DNA from: Clostridiales bacterium
GTDB taxonomy: Bacteria; Bacillota; Clostridia; Lachnospirales; Lachnospiraceae
Reading direction: 5' to 3'
DNA length: 64,000 nt
NCBI GenBank assembly: GCA_021202925.1
Contig: JAJQCD010000010.1
Location: 3,932 to 67,931, forward strand
This document shows, piece by piece, positions 1 through 17,365 of the stretch (the stretch's first letter is position 1; the number at the start of each line of letters is the position of its first letter). The notes under the pieces were generated by a model. That model was not told where the DNA came from. It did no database searches and saw nothing but the letters and a program-made list of their open reading frames with translations. The position numbers were made by a program, and so were the translations under genes.

Positions 1-288
1 TGGGAGGTCACCAAAGATAATGTTGTTGATGTTATAAGAAACGCTCAGGAAGGAGACTATATCCATATATCAAATGGTATCGTATCCCTTCCGATTAACA
101 GGGGGAATAATATTATCATTTATCCCAGTGATGGATTAAGTTACGATCCAAGTAATTGCTTCCGTTTGGTTGTGACAGATCTTGATATGAGATTCTCTAA
201 TGGTGATCACCTTGAAATATATGGTACATTTGATTATCAGGATGATATAGCCTGGATCATACCAGAATCTGTGAGTTACCTCAATTAG
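1..288 (+). CDS. 3' part of a hypothetical protein (start outside window)
   Basis: Frame 1 is open from base 1 to TAG 286-288 (WEVTKDNVVDVIRNAQEG...WIIPESVSYLN) and is followed by a hairpin. Confidence 0.75.
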   Translation, partial: WEVTKDNVVDVIRNAQEGDYIHISNGIVSLPINRGNNIIIYPSDGLSYDPSNCFRLVVTDLDMRFSNGDHLEIYGTFDYQDDIAWIIPESVSYLN

Positions 289-298
289 CCAGATTGTC

Positions 299-328
299 CA
301 GGCAGGATTAAGTTCCTGCCTGGATTTG
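299..328 (+). terminator. Intrinsic terminator-like hairpin
   Basis: tccaggcagga-ttaagt-tcctgcctgga followed by ttt, just after the stop at 288. Confidence 0.6.
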
Positions 329-488
329 TCAAGCTATTCGCCATGATCTCTGGTACAGGCATATGATTGGCTGTGTGGCGTGTCGTGAACGGCCAACGTT
401 TGAGATGTGGAAAGAGTGTGACGTTTACAGCCAGCGATGATTACAACGAAGAAAGAAATTTTTTATCAAATGAGAAAGGGAAGAGTGT

Positions 489-1685
489 ATGGGTAAGAAG
501 AAAAAACATAAGAAATCTACGAGGGATGCTGGGTTAAAGAAAGTGGAATATACAAGAGCAGAAACCGTTTTAGTGGATAATATTGCGATCGCTTTTGTCT
601 CTGATAATGACGAGCGGATGAACCAGGTATTCGATTTATTGAGACGGAGAACCGAAGGAATTGCAAGAAAGTACTGCAATGAAAATATCACCTGTGTTGA
701 TGTGCCTCAAAAGCTGCCGTTGTGTGAGAACCTGTCGCAAATTATCAATGACTGGGCTGCTTATGGATGGGATGAAACTGTAAAAGTAAAGAAGCTGTAT
801 GATAAAAATACCAGAAAAGAAATAGAACTCGGCGCGGTTTCATATATTTCACGAACGGTGATTGTCAGAAATGGAAACAGGTGTATCACCTATTTACATA
901 TTAAGCCGGAGATGATTCTGGATCTGTCACCATGTATCGGTACTTTTTCTGTCGTATATGTGGATTTGTGTTCTCCTCTCTCGCTTGCTTTCAAGATGGG
1001 TAAGGTAAGGGACAGGCATGACGGTTTTCGCTGTATTCCTTTTATCAGTGTGATGCTGTCAGACCTGAGTACGGAAGATTGGTTCTGTTTATTTCGAAAC
1101 TACTTGGAGTTTCCGGAAGTCACAGGAGGCATCGGTTGCCAACTGGGTTACGCAGAAGACACGGAAAAAGGTAGTGATAGCTACGACGATATCACAAAAA
1201 CGATCGTGATAAGGGATTCTCCGATAAACTTACCGGATATTGCGATTTTATTGCTGATTGACCCGATTTCGTTTCTGACAGGTGAGGACGAGACTGAGGA
1301 TAATGAGGATATGGAATATTTCTGTCGGGATGAAAAGGAACCATCCGTGCCTGGTCAGAGCAGTAAAGATGCGATCCGGATGCTTGTCCGGATCCATTCG
1401 CCGGAATTTGAGAAGATTATTGACCGATTGATTTCTGAGACAGATGTTTCCGGATACGAGACACTAGAAGAATATCGGAAGGATGTGCGAGTCATGGCTG
1501 AGGATGCGTGTTGGGCTTATCTGGATGATTTACTGGAACGGACTGGTGATCAAGCGGCGGATGATTCCGACGTGATCCGGGAGATCATTGGGGCGTTGGA
1601 TTCGCTGGTTAGGAATCTGATCGAATATAAATTCGATAATCGCCTTTATGAGACTTATAAGACAAAAGAACAGGGAGATGCATGA
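489..1685 (+). CDS. Hypothetical protein, 398 aa
   Basis: Long ORF with a Lys-rich N-terminus and acidic C-terminal half; no family recognised. Confidence 0.75.
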   Translation: MGKKKKHKKSTRDAGLKKVEYTRAETVLVDNIAIAFVSDNDERMNQVFDLLRRRTEGIARKYCNENITCVDVPQKLPLCENLSQIINDWAAYGWDETVKVKKLYDKNTRKEIELGAVSYISRTVIVRNGNRCITYLHIKPEMILDLSPCIGTFSVVYVDLCSPLSLAFKMGKVRDRHDGFRCIPFISVMLSDLSTEDWFCLFRNYLEFPEVTGGIGCQLGYAEDTEKGSDSYDDITKTIVIRDSPINLPDIAILLLIDPISFLTGEDETEDNEDMEYFCRDEKEPSVPGQSSKDAIRMLVRIHSPEFEKIIDRLISETDVSGYETLEEYRKDVRVMAEDACWAYLDDLLERTGDQAADDSDVIREIIGALDSLVRNLIEYKFDNRLYETYKTKEQGDA

Positions 1686-1881
1686 GTATTTCTTTCAGAT
1701 GCAGATTAGTTTGCGTTGGCGAGATTTGAACGTCGATTTGCCGTAGTGTACAGAAGAAGCTGCAGGGACAGGTTCGCAGGATTCAGTTGGATCAGTAGAG
1801 TATTTGTAAAACCAGCCATTTTGAATCATATACCATATTCTTGAATAAGCAGTATCTATCAAATTCAAGGAGGTAATGATA

Positions 1882-2814
1882 ATGGCAGCGAATGTTGAAA
1901 CAATGTTTTACACGAGGACAAAGCCGTGGCACGGGCTTGGGACTGAGGTACAGGAAGCGCCAGATTCCGGACGCGCTCTGGAACTGGCCGGTCTTGACTG
2001 GCGGGTGATCCAGAAAAACGTGCAGACGGCAGATGGTCTGGCGATTCCGGGTTTCCGCGCGAATGTCAGAGAGACGGACAATCAGGTTCTGGGAATTGTC
2101 ACGGACCGTTACAAGGTAGTCCAGAATGAAGACGCCTTTGCCTTTACAGATGAACTGCTGGGCAAGGGCGTTACTTATGAGACGGCTGGTTCCTTGCAGA
2201 ACGGCCGCAGAACATGGATTCTGGCAAAGCTTCCACAGCGGTATATCATCAGCGGCGATGAGATTACGCCGTATCTGGTTTTTATGAACAGCCATGACGG
2301 GACAGGAGCGATCAAGGCGGCGATGACTCCGGTGCGTGTAGTGTGTCAGAACACATTGAATCTTGCGCTTTCGACTGCGAAGCGCAGCTGGTCAACGAAT
2401 CATGTCGGCGATATCCGTGGAAAACTAGAAGACGCAAAGTATACACTTCTTTACGCGGAGCTTTATATGTCGGAGTTGGGTAAGGCGATTGATAACCTGA
2501 ATCAGCAGAAACTCTCAGACCGTCAGGTGTATGAGTATATTGACGCACTGTTCCCATTGACCGAGGGTGCGTCAGAACAGCAGAGAAAGAATCTTCTCCG
2601 TATGAAAGAGGATCTGAAAGCGCGTTATTTCGATGCGCCGGATTTAAGGCATGTGGGTAAGAATGCATACCGTTTTGTCAATGCGGTTTCTGACTTTGCG
2701 ACCCATGCAAAGCCGATCCGGGAGCGTTCCAATTACAGGGAAAGTCTGTTTGGACGTACTGTAGATGGGAACGCGATGATTGATCGGGCGTATGCAATGA
2801 TGAAGGCGGCCTGA
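1882..2814 (+). CDS. DUF932 family phage/plasmid-like protein (TIGR03299-like)
   Basis: MAANVETMFYTRTKPWHGLGT, YETAGSLQNGRRTWILAKLP, MNSHDGTG, TPVRVVCQNTL motifs; AGGAGG RBS 8 nt before ATG 1882. Confidence 0.9.
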   Translation: MAANVETMFYTRTKPWHGLGTEVQEAPDSGRALELAGLDWRVIQKNVQTADGLAIPGFRANVRETDNQVLGIVTDRYKVVQNEDAFAFTDELLGKGVTYETAGSLQNGRRTWILAKLPQRYIISGDEITPYLVFMNSHDGTGAIKAAMTPVRVVCQNTLNLALSTAKRSWSTNHVGDIRGKLEDAKYTLLYAELYMSELGKAIDNLNQQKLSDRQVYEYIDALFPLTEGASEQQRKNLLRMKEDLKARYFDAPDLRHVGKNAYRFVNAVSDFATHAKPIRERSNYRESLFGRTVDGNAMIDRAYAMMKAA

Positions 2815-2896
2815 TTCAGATTGGAATGATGATGCCGGGAAACATGGAACTGTAGGTACAAATAGTAGGCATAAATAACAGAAGGTAAATGATCAG

Positions 2897-2930
2897 AGTG
2901 GAGTGTCAGATAAGGCACTCCTTATTTTTG
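2897..2930 (+). terminator. Intrinsic terminator-like hairpin
   Basis: ggagtgtc-agataag-gcactcc followed by ttattttt. Confidence 0.55.
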
Positions 2931-2965
2931 TGTCTGTTTGTGGATGATCGAGAGGAGGGCTGCAT

Positions 2966-3016
2966 ATGCCGATGATTATTGTAAAAATCATTATCATGCT
3001 TTTAAAGGGTGACTGA
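2966..3016 (+). CDS. Candidate 16-aa hydrophobic peptide MPMIIVKIIIMLLKGD
   Basis: Strong RBS (AGAGGAGGG), ATG 2966, TGA 3014-3016; too short for the ORF track. Confidence 0.4.
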   Translation: MPMIIVKIIIMLLKGD

Positions 3017-3122
3017 GAAGACAGTCAAATGAGTTTAGCATTAACAAAAACAGAATGCCGATGGCGCTGATGAAAAACCATATTTGAATGAATATGGACG
3101 AAAAAATCAGAAGGAGAAAACT

Positions 3123-3347
3123 GTGAATAAAGCGAGAAGAAAGCTGGTATCGGAAGCATTTGACCTGGTTGACAAGGCGAAGGGAATTCTGGAGGATGTG
3201 AAGTCCGCAGAACAGGAGGCATATGATAACCTTCCGGAGTCGTTTCAGAATGGAGGCCGTGGTGAGGAGATGCAGGAGTGTATTGAGATGATTGAGGAAG
3301 GATTCAATCTCCTGGACGATGCGGCTTCTGTCATTGAGCAGATTTAA
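3123..3347 (+). CDS. Small helical phage/MGE-type hypothetical protein
   Basis: GTG start with AGGAG RBS; NKARRK...EQEAYDNLPESFQNGGRGEEM pattern resembles small mobile-element proteins. Confidence 0.75.
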   Translation: MNKARRKLVSEAFDLVDKAKGILEDVKSAEQEAYDNLPESFQNGGRGEEMQECIEMIEEGFNLLDDAASVIEQI

Positions 3348-3403
3348 AGAAGGGATTGATTTGGATGAACAGAAGGTCGAGCAGTGAACAGATGGAGGGG
3401 ATG

Positions 3404-3886
3404 ATGAAACGTCCGATCCCCAAAAAGAAGGTTGGTATCGTCAGAATTCAGATGGTAAAGGAAGACCGGTCCCTGTACGGGATGAGACGTTTTCAGGATG
3501 CAGTTGCGGCTGCAGAAATGGCAAGGGTGCTTTTCTCAATGGCTGACCGGGAAATCTTTCTGGTAGTAAGCCTGGATAGTAAGCTGGAACCAATGGCGGC
3601 CGAGATCGCAGCGGTCGGCGGTGTGGAATCATGCGCTGTAGATATGCGGAGTATTTTCAAGCACGCGATTTTGAATAATGCTTCGTATCTTATCTGTCTG
3701 CATAACCATCCATCGGGCGATCCGGCTCCAAGTTGGGAGGACAGAAAAATAACAGATCGGATCGCACAGGCAGGTCAGCTTTTAGGAATTCATCTGGTTG
3801 ACCATATTGTTGTAGGCGAGGGTCGATATTTCAGTTTTCGGGAGGAAGGTCTGCTTCACGAGAACAGTGAATACAGCGCAGCGTGA
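3404..3886 (+). CDS. radC: RadC-family JAB domain protein (start uncertain)
   Basis: HNHPSGDPAPSWEDRKIT and LVDHIVVG JAB motifs. Confidence 0.9.
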   Translation: MKRPIPKKKVGIVRIQMVKEDRSLYGMRRFQDAVAAAEMARVLFSMADREIFLVVSLDSKLEPMAAEIAAVGGVESCAVDMRSIFKHAILNNASYLICLHNHPSGDPAPSWEDRKITDRIAQAGQLLGIHLVDHIVVGEGRYFSFREEGLLHENSEYSAA

Positions 3887-4095
3887 CAGAGGACGATGTT
3901 GGGCCGGGAACCATGAGGAACCCGGCCTGATTATTGCCTGATAATAATATGGAAGAATCTGTTTATGGCAGGCTCTGTAGTTTGTCAAATCGTATGCAGA
4001 GATCTGTTTGTGACAGATCCTATCGTTATCGTCAGAGATGCAGAAAAAGATGAGGATACTGCATATTCTGCAGGTCTGGCTTAGGAGGAAAAGAT

Positions 4096-5025
4096 ATGTT
4101 TGATACGATAAGCACGGTCGGAATGAGTCGCGAGGAGTGGCTGCGCATTCGTAAGACCGGAATTGGAGGTTCTGATGCCGGAGCAATATGCGGCCTGAAT
4201 CGTTATCGGAGCGCAATCGACGTCTATCTGGATAAGATTTCAGAGAAGACAGAGGATGAGGACAATGAAGCCATGAGGATTGGAAGAGATCTGGAAGGAT
4301 ACGTGGCCGGACGGTTTATGGAAGCGACTGACTTAAAGGTGCGGCGTTCCAATCGGATGTACCGGAGTCGGGAACATCCGTTTATGCTGGCTGATGTAGA
4401 CCGGCTGGTTGTCGGAGAGGATGCCGGACTGGAGATCAAGACAGCCAGTCCGTTCGCGGAGGATCAGTGGAAGGACGGATCAGTGCCATTGAGTTATTTG
4501 TGTCAGGTGATGCATTATATGATCATCCTGGGGAAACGTTCCTGGTATCTGGCCGTTCTGATTATGGGAAGGGGATTCCAGTATCGTAAAATTGAATGGG
4601 ACGAAGAATTTGCCTCCGCACTGATTGCTGCAGAGGAAATATTCTGGAATAATCACGTAACACTACGCAAGATGCCAACTCCCGATGGTTCTGAGTCGTG
4701 TGATAAAATCTTAAATCATCTGTATCCTGCATCGGTGCAGCAGACGGCGATCCAGCTGACTGGTTTTGACGAGAAATTAAAACGTAGGGAAGAACTGGTC
4801 CATCAGTTAAAAGCGTTGGAACAGGAACAGCGGCAGATCGACCAGGAAATCAAGCTGTTTATGGGTGGAAATGAGGCTGCATATAATCAGGAGTATCGCA
4901 TCTCATGGAAAGAAGTGGTCAGTTCCAGACTGGATACCGGGCGATTAAAAGTAGAGCGTCCGGAGGTGTATCAGAATTATCTGCGTCAGAACAGCACCCG
5001 CAAATTTACGGTAAAGGCGGCCTGA
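4096..5025 (+). CDS. YqaJ-like viral recombinase (lambda exonuclease family)
   Basis: EEWLRIRKTGIGGSDAGAI, MLADVDRL, GLEIKTAS and YLCQVMHYM motifs. Confidence 0.92.
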   Translation: MFDTISTVGMSREEWLRIRKTGIGGSDAGAICGLNRYRSAIDVYLDKISEKTEDEDNEAMRIGRDLEGYVAGRFMEATDLKVRRSNRMYRSREHPFMLADVDRLVVGEDAGLEIKTASPFAEDQWKDGSVPLSYLCQVMHYMIILGKRSWYLAVLIMGRGFQYRKIEWDEEFASALIAAEEIFWNNHVTLRKMPTPDGSESCDKILNHLYPASVQQTAIQLTGFDEKLKRREELVHQLKALEQEQRQIDQEIKLFMGGNEAAYNQEYRISWKEVVSSRLDTGRLKVERPEVYQNYLRQNSTRKFTVKAA

Positions 5026-5140
5026 GATGAGTGAGATGGAATTGATGGAATGATGGAAGATTTGGTCTGGAGCAGATCGGAACAATAACACAGGATCATA
5101 CGCGGCGGACATGTCAGAATGACGAGGAGGAAGGACTATC

Positions 5141-5962
5141 ATGGCGGTCAGAGAGATGGTACGTCTGTTAAAGGCAGACGAGATTGAATGTCGAATTGCA
5201 ACGGTAAATGAGAGAGGGCTTAGTCTGCTGTTATTTAAAGATGCAAGAGTGGATCAGAAAATTCTGGATGAGACGTTCACGCCATTTGGCTGGAGGAGGA
5301 GCCATCAGTCTATTGATGGGAATTTGTACTGCACCGTGGAGGTCTGGGATGCAGAAAAGAGACAGTGGATTGGCAAACAGGACGTGGGCACTGGCAACAG
5401 TAGTTACGCGGAAAAAGAAAAGGGAACAGCATCCGACAGCTTTAAGCGCGCGTGTTTCAACTGGGGTATAGGCCGGGAACTTTATACCGCTCCCTTTATC
5501 TGGATTCCGGCAGAAAGGGTGACGATCGATCAGAGGGATGGAAGATTCGTGGTGAAAGATCGGTTCTCTGTCGCTGCGATTGATTATTCCGAAGACAGAG
5601 TGATTACAGCGCTGACTATTGTGAATGGGAACGGCGTCTGTGTTTACGTAATGCAGGAGAAGAAACAGAAGGAAAAACTGATGTCTCAGGAGATACAGAA
5701 ACCAAAGGATACAAAAGCTCGGAAGCAACGATCACAGCCCGGTTACTCGGAGAAAGCTCAGCCTGACAGAACGGTATCGCAACAGAACCCGGAGATCAGT
5801 CCGGGACAGGTGGCGGCACTAAACCGGGAACTGGAACGTACGGGAGTCCCATTGGAGACGGTGCTTGGCCGATATCAGCTTACTGGCATGAATGGGATGA
5901 CGGCTGATATTTATGAAAAGGCAATGGGATGCTTGCGGCGATCGAAGGACAGAGCGGCGTAA
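5141..5962 (+). CDS. Rad52/Sak-like single-strand annealing protein
   Basis: LLFKDARVDQKILDE, WIGKQDVG, EKEKGTASDSFKRACFNWGIGRELY match the phage Rad52/Sak-like annealase core; low-complexity linker in the C-terminal part. Confidence 0.8.
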   Translation: MAVREMVRLLKADEIECRIATVNERGLSLLLFKDARVDQKILDETFTPFGWRRSHQSIDGNLYCTVEVWDAEKRQWIGKQDVGTGNSSYAEKEKGTASDSFKRACFNWGIGRELYTAPFIWIPAERVTIDQRDGRFVVKDRFSVAAIDYSEDRVITALTIVNGNGVCVYVMQEKKQKEKLMSQEIQKPKDTKARKQRSQPGYSEKAQPDRTVSQQNPEISPGQVAALNRELERTGVPLETVLGRYQLTGMNGMTADIYEKAMGCLRRSKDRAA

Positions 5963-6001
5963 AATGTGAAGATAGAAACAACAGAACAGGAGTGCGGTGA
6001 A

Positions 6002-6931
6002 ATGATAACGGTGGAAGAATTTAGAGAAAAAGTAGTTAAGGAGCTGAATGCGATATATGGACGGGAATATGAGGCGTTTCCACTTGATCTGGCAAAAAAT
6101 AACGGTGTGAGGCGCTGTGGAATATCTGTGAAGAGAAAGGACGCTCTTGCCTCGCCGGTCGTCTATCTGGAAGGATATTATAAAGATTACCAGGATGGAA
6201 TGGAGATGGATGAGATTATTCTTATTATCCGGAGTCTGTTAGTGGAGACAGTACCTTCAAGGGAAATCGAGAGACAGGTAGCAACGCTGAATGATTTTGA
6301 AACGGTCCGGGAGTATCTGCAGTGCCGCCTGATCAATTATTCTGCAAATGAAGATACGTTACGAAATCAGGTGTTCCGGAGAGTATGTGACTTGGCGCTT
6401 GTGTTGGAAATCGTGATTCACAGTGATGAAATGGGCTCCATGACCATGCGGGTACAGAAGAAAATGACAGAAGATTGGGGCATGTCCGATGATGAACTGC
6501 TGGGTCAGGCATTGGAAAATGGAAAGAGGAAGAATCCGGCCCGGTTTTTCCGCGTGGAAAGCTTATTAAAAAGTCTGGTTACAGGAACGTTGGATGAACC
6601 GGAAACAGGTGCGGCACAGATGGAAACAGAAATGGAACCGGACCTCGATCTGTATGTCCTGACGGTGAATAAAGGAATTCATGGAGCGGTTGCCATGATG
6701 TATCCTGGGTGCTTGGAAAAGATCGCGGATGAGTTGGGTAGCGATCTGGTGATTTTGCCGTCCAGTATCCATGAAACATTGATCTTCTCCCGTACAAAAA
6801 GGGACGATTGGAAGAGTCTTCGTCAGATGGTTTATACCGTTAATCGGCAACATGTGGAAGAAGAGGAACGATTGTCCGATCAGGTATATGTGTTCTGCAG
6901 GATCAGTGGGACATTGGCGCTTGCAGCGTAG
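6002..6931 (+). CDS. DUF5688 family protein
   Basis: KNNGVRRCGISV, SPVVYLEGYY, LYVLT, GAVAMMYPG, LVILPSSIHETLI and LSDQVY motifs typical of this Clostridia MGE family. Confidence 0.8.
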   Translation: MITVEEFREKVVKELNAIYGREYEAFPLDLAKNNGVRRCGISVKRKDALASPVVYLEGYYKDYQDGMEMDEIILIIRSLLVETVPSREIERQVATLNDFETVREYLQCRLINYSANEDTLRNQVFRRVCDLALVLEIVIHSDEMGSMTMRVQKKMTEDWGMSDDELLGQALENGKRKNPARFFRVESLLKSLVTGTLDEPETGAAQMETEMEPDLDLYVLTVNKGIHGAVAMMYPGCLEKIADELGSDLVILPSSIHETLIFSRTKRDDWKSLRQMVYTVNRQHVEEEERLSDQVYVFCRISGTLALAA

Positions 6932-6942
6932 GAGGAAAAGAA

Positions 6943-7248
6943 GTGAGCATACGAAAAGAAAAAGAACTGCTTCAGATAGCGTTGGAAGAACATCTGAGTC
7001 AGATTTTAAAACAGGCGAAAGAACAGGACCGTGAAGACGAACGGATTCAGATCGAAGCGATTATGGAGAAGATGGATTCGGAGGAGCAGACTGTCCTGGC
7101 AGACTATATGAACCGGACAGATGACCGGGAGGCAGATGTTGCACGAAAGGCTTATGTTGGCGGTTTGCTGGACGGCGTGAGAATCGCGGGCATTATTTGG
7201 CTGGAGGCACTGCGAGGACAGTGTGAATGGGAGAAAACCCTGGAATAA
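6943..7248 (+). CDS. Hypothetical protein
   Basis: GTG start with AGGAGG RBS, in the same operon. Confidence 0.7.
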   Translation: MSIRKEKELLQIALEEHLSQILKQAKEQDREDERIQIEAIMEKMDSEEQTVLADYMNRTDDREADVARKAYVGGLLDGVRIAGIIWLEALRGQCEWEKTLE

Positions 7249-7361
7249 CGGTTATGGTTTACCGGACAGTCAGGAGTGGCTGTCCGGCATATATGGACGT
7301 GGGGACAATAGGCATGATTCATTTTGCCTGGATGTAGTGAAAAAAAGAAAGGAGAAGCTAT

Positions 7362-7628
7362 ATGGTCAGGAAATACACATTAAGTCAGGAAACGGTGGAG
7401 GAGCTTGAGACATTTTCTGTAGATTTTGAGCAGCTGGGCAATCTGATTGATCTTCTGGATCAGTATGTGCAGCAGAATGTTCTGAATGGTGATCAGGCAA
7501 TACTGGAAAGCAAGGACAGGACAGCGAGTCTGATTATGACCGTTGCGGATATCGTGCGTAAGTGCAGGAGTGAACTGCTGGCTGTTTTTGACCAGATCGT
7601 GCCGACGGATCACTCAGAGGCAGAGTAA
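7362..7628 (+). CDS. Hypothetical protein
   Basis: ATG with AAAGGAG RBS; 88-aa helical ORF. Confidence 0.7.
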   Translation: MVRKYTLSQETVEELETFSVDFEQLGNLIDLLDQYVQQNVLNGDQAILESKDRTASLIMTVADIVRKCRSELLAVFDQIVPTDHSEAE

Positions 7629-7650
7629 GTGAGATAACTGAGCAGATATA

Positions 7651-7745
7651 TCCATCTTTCCATCACTTCCATCGTATAAATAAGATAGATATAGAGTGGA
7701 ATAATATGATGTTTTAAAATGATGGAATGGATGGAAAGGTGGAAT
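7651..7745. repeat. Left ~95-bp inverted repeat flanking the serine recombinase
   Basis: 7716-7745 matches the reverse complement of 8540-8569 at 29/30; 7651-7662 matches the reverse complement of 8621-8632 at 12/12. Confidence 0.85.
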
Positions 7746-7792
7746 GAAAATTCGTACGATGAACAGATATCCTGTAGTAGGAGGATAATATA

Positions 7793-8410
7793 GTGACGGG
7801 GAGAGTTTTTGGCTACGCGAGAGTGAGTAGCAAAGAACAGAATCTGGATCGTCAGATTCTGGCATTACAGAAGTTTGTACCCGAAGAAAATATTCTGGTT
7901 GATAAAGCCAGTGGAAGAAATTTTGAACGTCAATCATATCAGGCCTTGAAAGGGGCTCTGGGATTACGCGAAGGAGATACGTTGATCATTACGTCTTTAG
8001 ATCGTTTGTCAAGAAATAAGAATGATATCAAGCAGGAGTTACAATGGTATAGAGATAAAGGCGTGCGCCTGAAAATTTTAGATTTGCCGACGTCGATGGT
8101 GGAAGTTCCAGATGGTCAGACATGGATTCTGGATATGATTCAGAACATTCTCATTGAAGTGCTGGCAAGTATAGCTGAGCAAGAACGATTGACTATTCGG
8201 AAACGTCAACGGGAGGGTATCGAAGCGGCGAAGAGGAAAGGAAAGCATCTTGGGCGCCCTAAGTTGGAACGGCCAAATAATTTTGAAGACATTTACAAAG
8301 AGTGGAGGCTGGGTCATGTAACTGCGGTGGGAGCTATGCGAGTGATGGGACTGACAAGCAGTTCCTTCTATCGTATGGTAAGATCATATGAATGTGAATC
8401 AAAAGGTTGA
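7793..8410 (+). CDS. Small serine recombinase (resolvase/invertase)
   Basis: GYARVSSKEQNLDRQ (catalytic Ser), SLDRLSRN, RQREGIEAAKRKGKHLGRP and a C-terminal HTH. Confidence 0.95.
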   Translation: MTGRVFGYARVSSKEQNLDRQILALQKFVPEENILVDKASGRNFERQSYQALKGALGLREGDTLIITSLDRLSRNKNDIKQELQWYRDKGVRLKILDLPTSMVEVPDGQTWILDMIQNILIEVLASIAEQERLTIRKRQREGIEAAKRKGKHLGRPKLERPNNFEDIYKEWRLGHVTAVGAMRVMGLTSSSFYRMVRSYECESKG

Positions 8411-8683: not shown

Positions 8684-10135
8684 TCATTCCGATGCGCCCT
8701 TGGTACTCATGACTATCAGATTGAAGATGTAGTCCTTTGCTTCAGCGAGGTAGCCTTCATTGTGATAAGAGAGTACAGGAATGTTGCAACTCTTTAAGTC
8801 TTTGGTATAATTGTCATGAATCTTTTCAATAGCTTCCTTCAAATCACGACAATAGGTTGTACCCTGTCGAACGGATTTTCGATTTTTTGCCTGGTCGTCG
8901 GACGAGAGTTTAATCATTTTCTTGATGTCTTCAAGCTTCTTGACGAGTGGAGCGTAGGATTTTTCTGTACATTTTGAAAAATTATCTACGAGCTCGTTCT
9001 TTTTTGCCTGGTTAATGAGCAGTCCTCCTGATGTGTGTGCGTGTTGAATAGCTGATTCTTTAAGAAGTTTGTTAAAACAGGATCGAAAAGAACTTCCTGC
9101 TGCATCAATCAGGTTTTGAATGGAAGAGATTCGGACTGTCCATTCTTTAAGGAAGGAATCCGGATTGTCGATTGCCAGTTCAAATGGTGAATCGACAATA
9201 TGGTGCGTACACAAGGCTTCATTTAAGTGGGTTAAGGCTTCGTTTGCTGCCTGATTGAGTCGGGATGAATAATCCTGGATAAAGTGAACTTGCAGGTCAG
9301 TAATCCAGGGTTCATCGTGAGGATACAGTATATTCACTGAGGCAACAGAGGAATCCTTGGCTCGTGTTACTTCGTATAGTCTGTCAGAATATTTTCCCAG
9401 TAGGTCAGTGAGAATGACATAATCGGACGGCACATTAAGAAGTCGGTTCGTAAGCGCTCTTACGGAATCTTTGATACATTCTGCCTGATCATCTGTTGTC
9501 GCATAAGAAGAGCAAATCTGCTCCAGTTTGAGAAAATAGGAACGTCCAAGGTTCTTAACCATCCAGGAATGGTAGGTTTCTGAAAAATCCATCAATTCTA
9601 TTCCTTCGATGGCAATCTTTGAAGCAACCGTGTTTGCAAGCTCATCGACGGAATGGTAAAGTTCTGTGACTGAGCGAATATCTCCTTTTACCAGTCTGTC
9701 AGCAGATAAAATCATAGGTAAGAGATAGGGAAGAAAGGCATAGGGGACCTCCCATTGGAATGTAGTATTTTTCTGTTGCTCCAAATTACAGTTGAGAATG
9801 AATTTCCCTTCATCATAAAGAGAGTCATATTGCCCTTCTTGAATTGTCTCTTCCTTTTCGGAATAAGGAAGTTGCAGTTTCAGACACTTCCGAGAAGGAT
9901 CGGACAAATAATTATATAACAATTCGTAAGTGGAGAATATTTCGTCTGACAATTTCAAACCTTTATGCAGATTGAAATAGAAAGCGGGGTTTGAATGTCC
10001 GAGTGAAGCAATAAACATAAGTTTCTCGAATGAATCAAATTGTTTTTTCGCAGTCTTCTGATCATATCTGTCAGTGACGCTGTTGATAAAATCGTAAAAA
10101 GCGGTTTTCGTTGTGATCCTGTCTTGGTTTGTCAT
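8684..10135 (-). CDS. Orphan hypothetical protein, 482 aa
   Basis: Long ORF; GGAGG RBS before ATG 10135; no family recognised. Confidence 0.8.
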   Translation of the reverse strand: MTNQDRITTKTAFYDFINSVTDRYDQKTAKKQFDSFEKLMFIASLGHSNPAFYFNLHKGLKLSDEIFSTYELLYNYLSDPSRKCLKLQLPYSEKEETIQEGQYDSLYDEGKFILNCNLEQQKNTTFQWEVPYAFLPYLLPMILSADRLVKGDIRSVTELYHSVDELANTVASKIAIEGIELMDFSETYHSWMVKNLGRSYFLKLEQICSSYATTDDQAECIKDSVRALTNRLLNVPSDYVILTDLLGKYSDRLYEVTRAKDSSVASVNILYPHDEPWITDLQVHFIQDYSSRLNQAANEALTHLNEALCTHHIVDSPFELAIDNPDSFLKEWTVRISSIQNLIDAAGSSFRSCFNKLLKESAIQHAHTSGGLLINQAKKNELVDNFSKCTEKSYAPLVKKLEDIKKMIKLSSDDQAKNRKSVRQGTTYCRDLKEAIEKIHDNYTKDLKSCNIPVLSYHNEGYLAEAKDYIFNLIVMSTKGASE

Positions 10136-10166
10136 TTTTTGATTCCTCCATATATATAAAATAAAT

Positions 10167-10195
10167 ATTATACAAAATTTAATATGATTTGTCAA
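10167..10195 (-). promoter_or_regulatory. Consensus sigma-A promoter for the 482-aa orphan
   Basis: Minus strand TTGACA (10195-10190), 17-bp spacer, TATAAT (10172-10167). Confidence 0.8.
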
Positions 10196-10485
10196 TAACC
10201 AAAATTCTGGTTGAAAAAAATTGGCTGTTCCAGTGGCAGGGGTGTTGCGATAGGATAAGGGCGTAACAAAACAATGGATGACATCTTCAAGCCGAAGACA
10301 TAGGAATAGTACAATGACGGAATTGGAAAAGGCAAAGAGACAGTCATCTTGCAGGCAGGAAATTCATCTTGAAGCTTACTTAATCACTGACGGCGAACTC
10401 AAGATTACGGATTTCTTCTGGCGGAACTGAGTTGAGCTTTAGGATGACCTGCAACCGCTGATTGGCGGGGAAAGGGGTATGAACC

Positions 10486-12639
10486 TTGAAAACTAAAGAC
10501 GTGGGAACAAACGAAATTGCAGTAAATGTGGCGCAGACGAAACTGATGAAGCCCTTCCACAAGGAGAGTCAACCTTTGAAGCAGAGTCCTATTTATGATT
10601 GGCCTCCAAGTGAGAAGATCTGCCCAATTTATCCATGGGATTCAGGTCAGAAGGCAAATCCCATTGTTAATGCTGATGAACTATCAGGCAATTACCATGA
10701 CGATCCGTTTGAAGGTATGGAATCTGACCGATTTCGATCTAAGCTGGATGCTCATGGAGAGACAGAGACAGAAGCTTCTCAGGAAGAAGTGGCTCTGTCA
10801 TGTGTGTCGGAAGGTGAAATGGCGGAGGTCGTTGATGTGGTGAGCACTCCTGTTTATCCGGAATTAATTCCAAGTTATCAGGCACCAACATCGTATTCGA
10901 ACACATTGGCCGTCTTTAATCAATCGGAAACGAGGATTTATGGATCCCCCAAACAACCTGACGATGAAGATGAGAGAGGTGGCGAAAGCTTCGTCGCAAA
11001 TTACAAACTTGAACCGCTTCGCATGGAACAGGTGATTAATTGGCGTGGTGACGTCGATTATGAAAATTGTTTGATTCGGGTGCGAATTCGGATAACACTA
11101 AGATCTCGCGAAATCTGTCAGGAATTTACGATATTTTGGAAAGAGATCGAAAGTCTGGCACAGGTTGTTGCAAGGCGTTTCCCTATGGCTCGGGCGAGGA
11201 AGAAATTCTATTCGCAAATCGAAATGGAATTTCGTGAAAGCCTGGAATGTATTGCAACCATTAACTGCTACTGTGATCATGGGTGGCAGCTAATCGCTGG
11301 AAAACGCATGTACGTCCATCAGACGGCGAAGGGGATCCTGGGGATAATTACCACGACGCAGAATCTTCCAGCAACTTCTGGCGTTGGCATCCAGGAATGC
11401 TGTGGTATCTGGGAAGCGTCACGGTCGTTATATCGAGTATCCGGCACTTCGGCAATTTTGAGTGTGTCAGCGTTCCTTGGGGTCATGTATCGGATTTTTG
11501 ATGAGGCGGGCCATGCGCCACGTTTCTTACTGTTTCTGACAGGCAAGACAGGATCCTTCAAGACCGCAATCGGCAAAGTGTTATTCACGCAAGTCGAGGA
11601 GGAGCGATTCAGGGAGCAACCGAGGCGATTGGATTCGGATACTTTGACTTCGCTGGAACGGAGCATCGTCACCTGCGGGCGCGACACAACGAGGCTGATT
11701 GATGATTTTTCGCCGGCTCTGAATAGACAGAAGAAGGCGACGCTGGAAAACGCACTTGAGATGATCACCCGGATGGTTGGTGATGGGAGTTCGCGGAGTC
11801 GTTCGAACGGAAGTCTTGAGGATAGACGAGGAGAAGGTGTTCGAGGGTTCGTAGTCGTTACTGGCGAGCTTCGCGGCAAGATTCTTTCATCGAATCTCAG
11901 GTGTCTTTATCTGACGATCGAGAAGGAGCACGTCAATTTAACACATCTAACATGGCTGCAGGAGAACAACGGAATGTATTGCGCTTTGATTCAGCATTTT
12001 ATCAATTATTTGTCGGATAATTGGGAGGGGATCGTTTCTTTTGTCCGAGAAAATTTCGATATCATGCGAAAAAAAGCGAGCAATATTTTACACACTGGTA
12101 GACTGGCGGATGCTCTTGCGATTCTGTGGTTGGCAACAGATATTCTGGCGGCTTTCTTTGAACGATGTGGTGAGACAGGGAGAGGAAATCTGTTCGAGCA
12201 GATGAAACGGGATATGATTTCTGTTTTTCTCGCCAGTGAGGCAATGGCGTATGAGGAAGATCCGACCGTCTCGTATATGTGTGCTCTTGAAACGCTGCTT
12301 GAGAATCAGGAACTGAATCTGAAAACTGGCCGATTTGGAGAAGAGGATCTGGAGAAGCTGGACGGCTTTGAGGCGGATGAATGCCTTTATCTGATGCCGT
12401 TACGCGTGTATCTGAAGGTGAAGAGCTGGATTCAGAAGGGCGGAGGAAGCTTTACACTGAGCGAAAAGGAGATCGTGACGGCTCTGGGTCAAGAGGGGTA
12501 TTTGGTTCCATCCTCAAATGGAAAAGAAAAGCGTACTTTTTATGCGAGAATTTTGATCGGTAAAAACCGCGTGAATTTTCTTCGAATACCACGATCTAAG
12601 TTGAGTGAGTTTGCGAGGACTGAGCCAGATTTTTTCTGA
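10486..12639 (+). CDS. DUF927/Cch-like AAA+ replicative helicase candidate
   Basis: Walker A GKTGSFKT, Walker B RLIDD, VVVTGE and SSNLRCL; preceded by HGWQ; located upstream of xis-int. No primase domain seen. Confidence 0.7.
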   Translation: MKTKDVGTNEIAVNVAQTKLMKPFHKESQPLKQSPIYDWPPSEKICPIYPWDSGQKANPIVNADELSGNYHDDPFEGMESDRFRSKLDAHGETETEASQEEVALSCVSEGEMAEVVDVVSTPVYPELIPSYQAPTSYSNTLAVFNQSETRIYGSPKQPDDEDERGGESFVANYKLEPLRMEQVINWRGDVDYENCLIRVRIRITLRSREICQEFTIFWKEIESLAQVVARRFPMARARKKFYSQIEMEFRESLECIATINCYCDHGWQLIAGKRMYVHQTAKGILGIITTTQNLPATSGVGIQECCGIWEASRSLYRVSGTSAILSVSAFLGVMYRIFDEAGHAPRFLLFLTGKTGSFKTAIGKVLFTQVEEERFREQPRRLDSDTLTSLERSIVTCGRDTTRLIDDFSPALNRQKKATLENALEMITRMVGDGSSRSRSNGSLEDRRGEGVRGFVVVTGELRGKILSSNLRCLYLTIEKEHVNLTHLTWLQENNGMYCALIQHFINYLSDNWEGIVSFVRENFDIMRKKASNILHTGRLADALAILWLATDILAAFFERCGETGRGNLFEQMKRDMISVFLASEAMAYEEDPTVSYMCALETLLENQELNLKTGRFGEEDLEKLDGFEADECLYLMPLRVYLKVKSWIQKGGGSFTLSEKEIVTALGQEGYLVPSSNGKEKRTFYARILIGKNRVNFLRIPRSKLSEFARTEPDFF

Positions 12640-12664
12640 CATTTCAGAAACGATACATCCTTTG

Positions 12665-12691
12665 TCGGCATATTTTAATGTGGTATGCCGA
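12665..12691 (+). other. Stem-loop just upstream of the intron-like RNA
   Basis: TCGGCATA (12665-72) pairs with TATGCCGA (12684-91); ATGTGGTATGC occurs twice (12678-88, 12691-701). Confidence 0.6.
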
Positions 12692-12697
12692 TGTGGT

Positions 12698-12917
12698 ATG
12701 CGCCGGGCATGGCTCAGTTCTAACTGGTGAAAGTCCAGTTATGGGTAACTTACCGTCCATGTAGTTAAACGCAAGGCGGCAATCCCGTTGTCAGTGACAG
12801 TGACGAAAGTAAATCAGATACTGTGAGGATGGATTAATTACTATGGGCTTGGAAGTATGAAGGTCTTTATACACAATGCAACGGGAGAGGCGAGACATTA
12901 GCCTCCCTCTACCCTAT
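12698..12917 (+). ncRNA. Miniature ORF-less group IIC intron-derived RNA
   Basis: 5' ATGCGCCGGGCATGG, hairpin TAACTGG-TGAAAGT-CCAGTTA, AACGCAAGG, stem GTAGTTAA/TTAATTAC, and a 3' domain VI-like stem GGGAGAGG/CCTCT-A-CCC ending in TAT. Domain Id, DII-IV and canonical DV are absent. Confidence 0.65.
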
Positions 12918-12937
12918 TTTTGGAGGGAGGTGATATC

Positions 12938-13129
12938 ATGCAGAAACAAAGCATTCCGCTGACAGAAAAACGGCTGTTATCCGTTCCCGAGTTTCAGGCT
13001 TATGCGAGTATTGGCCGGAACAACGCATTTCGGTTGATCCGTCAAGCTGATTGCGAGGTGCGTATCGGACGCAGGGTCTTTGCGGATCGCGTTCGGTTCG
13101 ACGCCTGGTGTAGCGCACAACACGGATGA
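12938..13129 (+). CDS. xis: Excisionase-like DNA-binding protein
   Basis: 63 aa, RLLSVPEFQAYASIGRNNAFRLI...VRIGRRVFADR; GGAGGGAGG RBS; directly upstream of the integrase. Confidence 0.8.
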   Translation: MQKQSIPLTEKRLLSVPEFQAYASIGRNNAFRLIRQADCEVRIGRRVFADRVRFDAWCSAQHG

Positions 13130-13201
13130 AATGACATAGACAACGGAGGGGGATGGAGCGACCATCCCTCTTATTGAAATATTAGAAAGAAGGAATTATC
13201 A

Positions 13202-14356
13202 ATGACAACAAAAGATATAAAAAAGCTTCCGAAAGGAATCACGCTTCGATCAGATGGTTACTATTTAGGACGGGTATCCTACTTTGGGGAAAGATATTCT
13301 CTGTATGACAGAGATCTGAAAACACTTCAAAGGCGGTTGAATGACTTGCGTTACGAACTGGAGCACGGGCTATATGCGAAAAAATCCCAGCTTACGATTG
13401 ACGACTGGTTCCGAACCTGGATTAGAGAATATAAATCAATGACCGTCAAGCAGGGGACGGTTGGCGTATACGAGGATACGTATCGTGCATATATCAAAGA
13501 TGCTTTGGGCAGGAAGAAGTTAAAGGATCTGAGGCCGGAACAGATTCAGGCTCTCTATAATAAGCTGAATCTTGACGGCTATTCGCACAGTACGATTGAA
13601 CTGGTGTCCGTGGTCCTCGGAGGTCTGTACAAACAGGCTTACAAAAACCAGCTGATTCAGAAGAATCCCGTTCCGTTGGCAACACTTCCGAAAGCGGTCG
13701 ATACTGTGAGGCAACGTGTTCTGACGGCAGAGGAACAGGAAATATTCTTACAGATTGCCAGAAAGCGTAAATACAGTCTGGCTTATGAGCTGGCGTTGTC
13801 GACGGGAATGCGAAGTGGCGAGGTTCGTGGTCTGCGTTGGGAAGATATTGATTTTGACAAGAGGCTAATCCATGTAACCGGTACATTGGTACAGAATCGA
13901 TATGGTTTTTACCGCGATCTGCCAAAGACGAAGAGTAGCCTTCGGGATATTCCGATGTTAGACAATGTGTATCAGTTGCTCGAAAAGTGGCGGGAAGAAC
14001 AGTCGGAGCGAAGGAATATGCTTGGCGCAGACTGGCGAGCAACAGAAGAATTTAAGGATCTGGTGGTCGCGACAGACATGGGTGCGCCGTTAGGTAAGAG
14101 TTATCTTAATAAGGGCATTAAGACGATCATCAAGCATATTGAGTCGGAGACAGAGAAACCATTTGAGTACATCACGTTTCATGGCCTGAGACATACTTTC
14201 GCGACCAGATGTATCGAAAATGGAATGGAACCTCAGGTATTGAAAGCGATTATGGGACATTCTAAACTGTCAATGACGATGGATCTGTATGCACATGTAT
14301 TGCCAGATGCAAAGTTAAAGGAAATGGAAAAAATCGCTGGGCTGTTTGAAAAATAA
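13202..14356 (+). CDS. int: Tyrosine integrase
   Basis: STGMRSGE (catalytic R), FHGLRHTFATR, MGHS...MDLYAH; N-terminal arm-binding and SAM-like regions. Confidence 0.95.
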   Translation: MTTKDIKKLPKGITLRSDGYYLGRVSYFGERYSLYDRDLKTLQRRLNDLRYELEHGLYAKKSQLTIDDWFRTWIREYKSMTVKQGTVGVYEDTYRAYIKDALGRKKLKDLRPEQIQALYNKLNLDGYSHSTIELVSVVLGGLYKQAYKNQLIQKNPVPLATLPKAVDTVRQRVLTAEEQEIFLQIARKRKYSLAYELALSTGMRSGEVRGLRWEDIDFDKRLIHVTGTLVQNRYGFYRDLPKTKSSLRDIPMLDNVYQLLEKWREEQSERRNMLGADWRATEEFKDLVVATDMGAPLGKSYLNKGIKTIIKHIESETEKPFEYITFHGLRHTFATRCIENGMEPQVLKAIMGHSKLSMTMDLYAHVLPDAKLKEMEKIAGLFEK

Positions 14357-14484
14357 GAATGGAACATGCGCAGAGGTTGGTAAAACACTGGATGATAACT
14401 GTCAAAAGTAAAGGATGGCAGAGCAGAGGAGAAGGTAAGTGTTTCCTCTACTTTGCCATTTTAAGTGTGAAAAGAGTTTCATAT

Positions 14485-14916
14485 TCACGGAGATTGCACG
14501 CCAGGATCATCTTGGCTCTTTGACAGTCTCTTTTCCACATAATTTGATACGCCGTCAAAAAATAAATGTGCCTGACTGATCTGATCTTCAACGTCAACCT
14601 TTGATATGACATAATAATCATCATAATCAGATTCTGTTCTGACTTCAAAGGCTTTGGTTAGAATCTTGGAATACTCTTTTTCAAAGATTCCAGACCGGAC
14701 ATAGTTTTTCTGGAAATAAGCCATCACACCTGCGTGTTTAGAAAAATCAATTCCGTCTAATGCAAGTATACTTCTAATGCAGTGAAAAATACTATAATAG
14801 GATCGATTGGCAGCACTGCAATAGTCTCCTGAATTTAAAAGGATTTTGGCTGATTCGAGACATTGCGCCGATTTTTCCAGGCGATATTTGCATAAGGCTA
14901 TCTTCCTATCATCCAT
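14485..14916 (-). CDS. HEPN domain protein, partner of the MNT
   Basis: AANRSYYSIFH, SKHAGV and RTESDY; overlaps the MNT stop codon. Confidence 0.9.
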   Translation of the reverse strand: MDDRKIALCKYRLEKSAQCLESAKILLNSGDYCSAANRSYYSIFHCIRSILALDGIDFSKHAGVMAYFQKNYVRSGIFEKEYSKILTKAFEVRTESDYDDYYVISKVDVEDQISQAHLFFDGVSNYVEKRLSKSQDDPGVQSP

Positions 14917-15262
14917 AGATTGCTACCCCTTCTTTCACTACATTTTGATAGAACGGAAGGAAATCCTGATTTTCCTCAAAGTGTTTCCGATCTCTTAATA
15001 TAATTGACACGAAGATTCCTTCATCAAGAGAAATGTCGCTGGCCATTTCAGATGTCCTGTCGCGCAGCTTCCTGATTTCGTTCTGGTCACAGTCTAGCAA
15101 TATCATGATATCAATATCAGATTCGTCGGTATGATCCCCTCTGGCATAGGAGCCATACAGAATAATCCGATCAAGTTGGTTCCCATAAATTTTTCTGGAT
15201 TCTTCTTTTATTCTTCCCAATACGCTCTGCAATTCAGCATTGTTACATTCGTGATTCTCCAT
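14909..15262 (-). CDS. Minimal nucleotidyltransferase (MNT)
   Basis: LYGSYARGDHTDESDIDIM motif (GSxxxG..DxD). Confidence 0.92.
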   Translation of the reverse strand: MENHECNNAELQSVLGRIKEESRKIYGNQLDRIILYGSYARGDHTDESDIDIMILLDCDQNEIRKLRDRTSEMASDISLDEGIFVSIILRDRKHFEENQDFLPFYQNVVKEGVAIYG

Positions 15263-16395: not shown

Positions 16396-17125
16396 TCAGT
16401 ACCACCGGCTTAGCCGGTGGTTTGATTTTCGCCCTATAAGGGCTCGTTCCCGGCGCAAGGGTCTAAAGACCCGCTGAGTAGTTCGCCAGCCGCAACATCA
16501 GTTACTTGCTAAGCCCCCTGGGCTCACTTTTTATTGCTTTTCATTACCGGCTCACCCGTAAACGGGTCAATATACTCTTTTAAAGACATCTGATCATATT
16601 CCAAATCTTCTTTCAGCTGATTTCGAATATACTCTTCAATCTTTTTTGCATTTTTCCCTACAGTATCCACATAATAGCCTCTGCACCAGAAATGCCTGTT
16701 TCCATACTTATATTTAAGGTTTGCATGTCGCTCAAATATCATAAGTGTACTTTTACCCTTTAAATACCCCACAAATTCCGATACACTCATCTTAGGCGGA
16801 ATCTCTACCAACATATGCACATGATCTGGGCATATCTCCGCTTCGATTATGTTTACTTCTTTGCGCTTACATAGCATACTTAAAATATTGGCAATATCCT
16901 GCTTCAACTCACCATATATTATTTTTCTTCTAAATTTAGGTGCAAAGACAATATGGTACTTACAATTCCACGTCGTATGTGATAAAGTATTCTTGTCCAT
17001 TCGGACGACCTCCTTTGATTAATAAAACGGTTGGCGAACCTTTTTTTATTATATCACTGGAGGTTTTTTACACATCGCTGAAGCTATCCCAACCACCCGC
17101 ATAGCAGGTGGTTTTTTTGTTCTCC
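16395..17125 (-). mobile_element. IS200/IS605-family element, tnpA only (ends approximate)
   Basis: Subterminal hairpins ACCACCGGCTTAGCCGGTGGT (16401-16421) and ACCACCCGCATAGCAGGTGGT (17093-17113) flank tnpA. Confidence 0.85.
16524..17000 (-). CDS. tnpA: IS200-like Y1 HUH transposase
   Basis: CKYHIVFAPKFRRK, PDHVHMLV (HUH), FWCRGYYVDTVG and EEYIRNQ (catalytic Tyr). Confidence 0.96.
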   Translation of the reverse strand: MDKNTLSHTTWNCKYHIVFAPKFRRKIIYGELKQDIANILSMLCKRKEVNIIEAEICPDHVHMLVEIPPKMSVSEFVGYLKGKSTLMIFERHANLKYKYGNRHFWCRGYYVDTVGKNAKKIEEYIRNQLKEDLEYDQMSLKEYIDPFTGEPVMKSNKK

Positions 17126-17189: not shown

Positions 17190-17365
17190 AAAAAGAAAGA
17201 GCCTTGCCATTGCAAGGCTCTCACTCAAGCGTTTTCATTCGATTCCGGGGAATCTAGTCGGCTTGTGGTAACCGCATAACCCACGGGCTGGCTCCACAGA
17301 TGGCTGCATTCCGACACAGTCAACTGTTTCATCACCACGATAGCTGGTCATCGCCGCTATCCTCT
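17190..17365 (-). ncRNA. Candidate ~175-nt structured sRNA
   Basis: Own promoter and 10-bp terminator stem (17198-17221, then TTCTTTTT); internal stems GATAGC/GCTATC, GTCGG/CCGAC and GATTC/GAATC. Confidence 0.55.

Follow-up and report, generated by a model that had tools for sequence, protein, structure and literature searches.

The xis–int module

The window, a 64,000-nucleotide stretch of DNA, contains a small excisionase-like gene (xis) placed between a large open reading frame (ORF) and a tyrosine integrase gene (int). The three genes run in the same direction:

10486–12639, + strand: ORF of 717 aa upstream of the intron fossil described below, encoding a replication-type protein of an integrative element.
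12938–13129, + strand: xis-like gene of 63 aa, recognized from its homologues and from synteny, with a Shine-Dalgarno (SD) sequence, GGAGGGAGGTGA, ending 4 nt before the ATG.
13202–14356, + strand: tyrosine integrase of 384 aa, 72 nt after xis, matching Phage_integrase (3e-30) together with SAM-like domains, and the phrog_1 integrase (8e-74).

The 717-aa protein itself matched nothing in Pfam, NCBIfam or PHROG; some of its homologues carry PF06048 (DUF927), and the equivalent gene in a related locus (L042) has DUF5906/Pox_D5. The putative identification of the 63-aa gene as xis follows from synteny and from weak profile matches. Eighteen homologues of 63–72 aa begin at the same position as the xis ATG, and all those with enough downstream sequence lie directly upstream of a tyrosine integrase, a synteny seen in L042, L048, L050, L052 and L053. 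The gene in the window likewise directly precedes a tyrosine integrase gene of the same orientation within an integrative element, the arrangement expected of an excisionase gene. Its product matches HTH_17 (E = 0.063) and Tn916-Xis (E = 0.15), both below the cut-off, and Tn916-Xis matches 13 of the 18 homologues with a best E of 3e-5. A comparison with PDB entry 1y6u gave a weak match (E = 0.048). The AlphaFold model of Xis is of low confidence (pLDDT 62) with elements in the order H-H-E-E-H, and Foldseek retrieved no match to it from the PDB at E ≤ 0.001.

Several other features of the neighbourhood deserve mention. An 11-bp GC-rich hairpin in the spacer between xis and int (GAGGGGGAUGG / CCAUCCCUCUU, then UAUUGAAAUAUU) occupies 13141–13176, and the spacer folds at −19.4 kcal/mol. 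This hairpin could be an internal attenuator or terminator, and is a stem-loop of the kind targeted by class C introns. Directly downstream of int lies a toxin–antitoxin-like pair of HEPN and minimal nucleotidyltransferase genes (14485–15262, − strand), the Pfam domains of which are found at the same position in L042. A strong match to the Rfam 'drum' RNA (17224–17337, − strand; 98 bits against a threshold of 43) lies ∼220 nt beyond an IS200-like Y1 transposase gene (16524–17000, − strand) in + strand numbering, and so upstream of it in the direction of transcription. Among the genes within 1–8410 are those for DUF932, a RadC-like JAB protein, a YqaJ-type exonuclease, a Rad52-like protein, DUF5688 and a small serine resolvase. 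The GC fraction lies at 0.40–0.49 as far as ∼17.5 kb and at 0.52–0.56 beyond. The sequence suggests an integrative element or prophage-like island, the left end of which would lie at or before the start of the window.

A group II intron fossil upstream of xis

The interval between the 717-aa gene and xis holds the remains of a group II intron, preceded by a stem-loop:

12663–12693, + strand: 12-bp stem-loop, lying 24 nt past the stop codon of the ORF and separated by 6 nt from the start of the intron, present in the MFE structure of every long fold.
12700–12917, + strand: doubly deleted group II intron fossil of ∼218 nt (full-length relatives, ∼1.65–1.9 kb), delimited by BLAST to introns L037–L039.
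12700–12779, + strand: segment A, intron nt 1 to ∼81, with 75–90% identity to intron 5′ ends in the same genome (end of contig C23) and in relatives.
12793–12871, + strand: segment B, a scrap of maturase (domain X) with an in-frame TGA, equivalent to ∼nt 1438–1516 of a 1.9-kb relative by BLAST to L039.
12883–12914, + strand: domain VI (DVI), in which A12911, six nt short of the last intron position (12917), is bulged in the manner of a branch point, identified from its fold and from 23 other distinct DVI sequences.
12917–12921, + strand: T5 run, made up of the last intron base, T12917, and four T of the 3′ exon.

BLAST against L039 aligned 12699–12779 with intron nt 1–81, 12793–12871 with ∼nt 1438–1516 and 12879–12921 with ∼nt 1844–1887. 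Two internal deletions, of ∼1.36 kb and ∼0.33 kb, have left the first 81 nt, the maturase scrap and domain VI. A GIIM match (PF08388, 27.9 bits) spans 12764–12871 with one stop, and the translation of this 36-codon fragment has GWINYYG. Each of the full-length introns L037–L039 has Rfam group-II-D1D4-3 (RF02001), a 434-aa RVT_1+GIIM protein and Intron_gpII (DV+DVI); RF00029 scores 41–43 bits in these and in L041. In positions 10000–15000 of the window, Rfam gave no match to RF00029 (DV) at E ≤ 1. A match to Rfam group-II-D1D4-4 at 12721–12886 was considered as an intact domain and rejected: it reaches 21 bits against a threshold of 49 and corresponds to the retained GGUGAAAGUCC motif.

The 5′ end of the fossil reads GCGCC, and that of the relatives examined reads GTGCC. 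Among the hallmarks of a functional intron, the fossil retains a domain VI with a bulged A a few nt from the 3′ splice site, and is devoid of DV, of the DI–IV core with a GUGYG-type 5′ end and of an RT/maturase ORF. It is established in group II biology that an intron without such domains can neither form the ribozyme nor splice. Because the fossil is without the catalytic domain V, 12700–12917 should be unable to splice or to fold as a ribozyme.

Pieces of this intron recur elsewhere in the same genome. A match to 12877–12922 (95–96% identity) lies at the end of each of contigs C25 and C36, and one to 12699–12751 (91% identity) at the end of C23, which is the usual signature of a multicopy element breaking the assembly. 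Full-length copies of this intron number at least two in the genome (G000), but their bodies are unassembled and only stubs at contig ends represent them (C25:79043–79101, C36:56691–56745 and C23:80392–80444). A more divergent DVI is located in C13 (126352–126385) and a separate RF00029 match in C14 (81891–81959). Beyond this genome, the same pieces flank elements of 1.65–1.9 kb in 25 of 400 genomes from this family, and L037–L039 are three of these elements. We also considered that the window copy is a trans-mobilised 'mini-intron', and rejected this because no second copy with the same deletions was found in its own genome or in the 400 other family genomes.

Insertion site and the T5 run

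[quoted passage not shown] The fossil begins 6 nt downstream of a terminator-like stem-loop, and its full-length relatives lie 8–11 nt behind terminator-like hairpins. By its insertion site, and by the IEP domains of its relatives, the fossil intron is class C-like. A direct repeat, GTGGTATGC, occurs at 12680–88 and 12694–12702, the second copy crossing the boundary between 5′ exon and intron; it may be due to chance or be a trace of the history of insertion and deletion.

In some samples a related xis–int element (Xis P0011, 77% identical) carries the 5′ end of a group II intron (...GACGGGCATGCC...GGTGAAAGTCC...) immediately behind the terminator that lies between xis and int (L046:3240–3318, and L047). 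The same site is uninterrupted in other samples (L048:330–380, and L049), which represent the empty-site allele. Comparison of these two pairs suggests that xis–int modules have been hit repeatedly by such introns, with independent invasion of the same module family.

A preliminary description of the locus had noted a T5 run behind the upstream stem and had inferred a translational or attenuation switch. The run is present at 12917–12921, but it coincides with the intron/3′-exon junction, which is T-rich in most family insertions examined. Family copies all end CCCTAT / ...CTCTACCCTAT, and a T-rich start is common to most 3′ exons examined, among which TTTTGG recurs. Being the last T of the intron followed by the T's of the target site, the run is not a purpose-built attenuator tail. 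DVI together with UAUUUUU might still serve as a polar terminator or insulator that weakly stops read-through before xis, a mainly transcriptional effect that is compatible with the explanation favoured below. The stem, at −16.5 kcal/mol, ends at 12914 and is followed by UAUUUUUGG, and the geometry of DVI plus a T-rich 3′ exon recurs across the family. Terminators, however, need strong pairing at the stem base, precisely where DVI has a bulged A and a 3-bp basal helix. Moreover, the U run begins 2 nt past the stem and is only 5 long. A consensus scan made no terminator call here, though by its rules a stem with a bulge or a long loop is passed over. We regard termination as the main effect of the fossil as unlikely.

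Two hairpins share one pyrimidine tract

The same preliminary description had proposed that two mutually exclusive hairpins gate the xis ribosome-binding site. Reading 12400–13400 directly, we found its coordinates to be right throughout: GGGAGAGG occupies 12883–12890, TTTTT 12917–12921 and ATG 12938–12940. Checking the reverse complement showed that CCTCCCTC (12902–12909) is perfectly complementary to the xis SD, GAGGGAGG (12923–12930), as had been claimed. In RNAfold structures this pairing is part of a 10-bp core between 12902–12911 (the anti-SD, on the 3′ strand of DVI) and 12921–12930 (the SD), one G-U included. The anti-SD tract sits 12 nt 5′ of an unusually long SD, GGAGGGAGG. The core belongs to a larger hairpin:

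12890–12941, + strand: SD/AUG-sequestering hairpin of −23.7 kcal/mol, the imperfect extension of which reaches the AUG at 12938–40.

Folding places the SD within this downstream hairpin, as proposed, and the AUG is covered too. The 91-nt region has a folding z of −3.06, and none of 200 shuffles was equally stable.

The competing upstream stem had been called domain VI-like. Its fold and family comparison identify it as group II intron domain VI. The pyrimidine tract does pair upstream, but not in the register suggested, 12883–90 with 12902–09, which contains one A-C mismatch and one G-U and is bettered by a shifted register. Energy and 24 distinct family members support a register that pairs 12883–85 with 12912–14, leaves A12911 bulged, and pairs 12886–90 with 12906–10 and 12892–94 with 12903–05. 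Both hairpins need 12903–09, and folding confirms that they exclude one another.

Origin of the anti-SD tract and the SD

We compared 41 true DVI ends from other genomes with the window copy, which together amount to 24 distinct sequences. All 24 share the same shape (a 3-bp base, the bulged A, a 5-bp helix, a 1-nt bulge and an apical stem of 3–6 bp), and the apical stem covaries (GAGGG/CCCTC, GAGAA/TTCTC, GAGGC/GCCTC and GAGAC/GTCTC). The pyrimidine tract CUCCCUCU is kept on the 3′ strand of DVI in all family copies, whatever gene lies downstream. CTCCCTCTACCCTAT is present in the 41 true DVI ends beside unrelated 3′ exons, which is to be read as recurrence beside such exons and not as an independent test of invariance, the 3′-strand tract CTCCCTCT having belonged to the 15-nt search pattern. 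The tract is also present in copies found independently by homology (L002, L004, L005, L020, L037–L039 and L041). Because it recurs in intron copies next to unrelated 3′ exons, the anti-SD is an inherited feature of the intron and no adaptation to xis.

The other partner can be traced through L042, the nearest intron-less relative, which has a Xis 87% identical to that of the window, the same int and HEPN/nucleotidyltransferase neighbours, and the SD AAAGGGAGGTGA. The SD core, AGGGAGGTGA, is common to the window and L042, DNA homology with the window starting at 12924. GGA at 12922–24 lengthens the pairing and lies outside the homology with L042. Since the tract is that of the intron family and the SD core is shared with an intron-less relative, the pairing arises from juxtaposition of the two.

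Rarity and conservation of the pairing

A complement of at least 8 nt to the 3′ strand of DVI is found at 0.7% of ∼11,000 crude SD-bearing candidate starts in the same genome. At the 40 other distinct 3′ junctions of the intron family, a complement of at least 7 nt within 35 nt was never encountered (0/40); the longest is 6 nt, in one case, and the others are of 5 nt or less. By these counts the pairing is rarer than a coincidence would typically be, and it is also a singleton picked after the fact. We considered SD pairing as a general trait of the family, by which translation downstream would depend on splicing. This was rejected on the same 0/40 junctions, and because DVI, when intact, prevails over the SD hairpin.

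The mean unpaired probability of the SD region ranges from 0.27 to 0.81 in 10 xis relatives (at least 7 different contexts), as against 0.05 here. Among ∼10 xis relatives, none has an intron signature or an anti-SD upstream of xis, and none has an occluded SD. A search of the other 400 family genomes gave no second case of the arrangement, and exact scans of metagenome_contigs and viral_contigs gave none of the SD–xis junction. The only other carrier of an identical Xis (L051) has 100% identical DNA and is probably the same organism. The collections searched contained no near-identical intron-less copy, homologues of the 717-aa protein being at most 47% identical. The plasmid collection gave no match and the phage collection one short match only, to the 5′ piece of the intron in an unannotated faecal phage record.

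A regulatory switch would be expected to show conservation or covariation of both structures in homologous loci, and neither was seen. We found no sensor, whether riboswitch, aptamer, thermometer or leader peptide; Rfam gave only the sub-threshold intron match. Within 12640–12937 there is no leader ORF save a 41-codon frame overlapping the end of the upstream gene.

Energetics favour the SD-closed hairpin

Folded alone, DVI has a predicted free energy of −16.5 kcal/mol and the SD/AUG hairpin one of −23.7 kcal/mol, a ddG of 7.2 kcal/mol. In contexts of 69–451 nt the anti-SD:SD pair probability is at least 0.99 and the SD unpaired probability at most 0.02, such that the SD is more than 98% paired at equilibrium. 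In silico, and at that level only, the locus has the makings of a translational switch: the SD and start codon are paired to an anti-SD, and a competing helix is present. As the transcript grows, DVI is completed ahead of the SD and remains the MFE structure until the 3′ end passes ∼12926. The barrier to leaving DVI by the direct path is estimated at up to 15.7 kcal/mol. Given that DVI is the MFE structure to ∼12926, a transient co-transcriptional window in which DVI forms first and the SD is open is plausible.

The dominance of the SD-closed form results from damage to DVI by the derived base A12895. A12895 breaks the apical stem, a defect that only the window copy shows among the 24 distinct DVI sequences of the family. 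Copies in the same genome, and L102, have a G at this position, which pairs with C12902. When G was restored at 12895 in silico, DVI moved to −23.1 kcal/mol and the MFE structure then kept DVI. The G-to-A change also converts a G-U to an A-U pair in the extension of the SD/AUG hairpin. Hence, in these models, the strong bias towards SD closure hangs on one derived substitution in a decaying remnant.

These data bear on the central claim of the preliminary description, which took the two hairpins for an evolved translational or attenuation switch coupling the fold of the intron RNA to Xis output. In such a bistable element the ratio of DVI (SD open) to anti-SD hairpin (SD closed) would be set co-transcriptionally or by a trans-acting factor, and Xis tuned to a signal. 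Several features would suit it: each hairpin is stable individually and they overlap at 12903–09, DVI is completed before the SD is made and holds the MFE to a 3′ end at 12926, the direct-path barrier out of DVI is high, and the pairing is longer than in the 40 other junctions. We nonetheless think such a switch very unlikely. The fossil is without DV, DI core and IEP, so that there is no ribozyme fold to couple, and deletion has taken the parts of the intron for IEP binding or ribozyme formation. Ancestry explains both sequence partners, the tract being in all intron copies and the SD core in L042, and no relative of xis has an occluded SD or an upstream intron. The equilibrium is unbalanced rather than poised, its imbalance stemming from a single mutation that damages DVI. 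Finally, the arrangement is a singleton across 400 other family genomes, the Xis relatives and the exact-junction scans, and no riboswitch or aptamer family was matched.

The folding kinetics also allow for exaptation of the fossil as a timer. Nascent DVI would permit a short burst of Xis before slow refolding, over a barrier of up to ∼15 kcal/mol, locked the SD and AUG, with A12895 selected to set the balance. Were this so, a dead retroelement would keep excisionase low and the element integrated. We hold it to be a long shot.

A probable translational brake as a by-product of intron decay

The explanation we favour, which we think probable though far from assured, is that the pairing is an accidental by-product of intron insertion and decay, acting as a largely constitutive translational brake on xis with no sensor-driven switch. 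A by-product is indicated because neither a sensor nor conservation was found. The analysis establishes what the fossil is and how it is built, that its tract is conserved and its pairing unique, and what the in silico energetics are. For the cell, effects on translation or excision are predictions from the folding models.

According to this explanation, a class C-like group II intron would have inserted 6 nt behind the stem-loop at 12663–93, between the 717-aa gene and xis. Read-through transcripts from the 717-aa gene would carry the unspliceable fossil, in which the 3′ strand of DVI would capture the xis SD and AUG and damp translation of Xis largely constitutively. A brief SD-open phase would be possible while nascent domain VI persists, and DVI followed by UAUUUUU may also terminate some transcripts. 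Occlusion is perhaps tolerated, low Xis keeping the element integrated.

Some observations sit uneasily with a mere by-product. An 8-nt perfect match (10 bp with the G-U) that also extends to the AUG is uncommon by chance, and selection for pairing is possible. A12895 both weakens DVI and puts an A-U in place of a G-U in the extension of the SD hairpin, which has the look of adaptive change, but it is a single event. The refolding barrier is high, and the SD-open form might last long enough in vivo to matter.

At the other extreme, the fossil may be a functionally silent relic, the hairpin being irrelevant to the transcripts or conditions that yield Xis, or the element already immobile, with no phenotype in either case. 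Consistent with silence, there is no conservation and the fossil is decaying, as seen from the stop in the maturase scrap, the mutated 5′ end and the broken apex of DVI. However, a hairpin of about −18 to −24 kcal/mol over the SD and AUG is far beyond the stability that reduces translation; the stability of an SD hairpin at which translation falls was reportedly worked out by de Smit and van Duin in 1990. The space between 12911 and the SD is too short for a promoter, and none that is convincing lies inside the fossil, where the scan was at chance level. The promoter and terminator scan of 12300–13300 as a whole gave matches at chance level and was not used. A silent relic is in our judgement quite unlikely.

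If occlusion by the by-product hairpin is real in vivo, it is a clear case of a group II intron whose scar alters how a second mobile element behaves, namely whether an integrative element is excised. It would also show that the pyrimidine-rich strand of DVI can mimic an anti-SD. The locus is a caution that a conserved ribozyme helix beside a strong SD can yield a convincing two-hairpin 'switch'. No general mechanism or long-standing question hinges on this case of xis SD occlusion.

Comparison with known systems

Group II introns in fragments are familiar, as are hairpins that sequester an SD. A shallow search of the literature found no description of a dead-intron DVI strand acting as the anti-SD of an excisionase.

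The intron resembles class C (IIC) introns, for example, B.h.I1 of Bacillus halodurans, in being intergenic, in sense orientation and a few nt (3–11) downstream of a terminator-like stem-loop (PMC1702495). Further likenesses are that the IEP of its full-length relatives has RT and maturase domains with no match to an endonuclease domain, and that the DVI of the fossil has a bulged A near its 3′ end. Unlike IIC introns such as B.h.I1, the window copy has shrunk to a fossil of 218 nt that lacks DV, the IEP and most of DI–DIV.

Intact group IIC-attC introns alter expression of downstream integron cassettes through polarity and an outward promoter, Pout (PMC3001079, as summarised in PMC8876359). 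As far as that summary goes, the parallel is that a class C-type intron placed between genes of a mobile element changes downstream expression, which is what we propose here. The effect summarised there is transcriptional, whereas ours would be occlusion of an SD by the DVI strand of a dead remnant, in which no convincing outward promoter was found.

SD-sequestering systems include the MS2 coat-gene hairpin series, RNA thermometers and translational riboswitches; they are conserved and covarying, and have a sensor (temperature, a ligand or leader translation). The xis locus is like such switches in that an anti-SD pairs with the SD and start codon and an upstream helix competes, but unlike them in being a singleton, sensorless, and in drawing its anti-SD from a retroelement. 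Introns, too, can govern ribosome-binding sites. In Clostridioides difficile a c-di-GMP-dependent group I ribozyme assembles such a site on splicing, and in Ll.LtrB the LtrA protein binds DIVa over its own SD. Whereas these depend on an active intron or on an IEP-binding domain, neither of which the fossil has, the xis locus would share with them the principle that the structure of an intron RNA sets the usability of a neighbouring SD.
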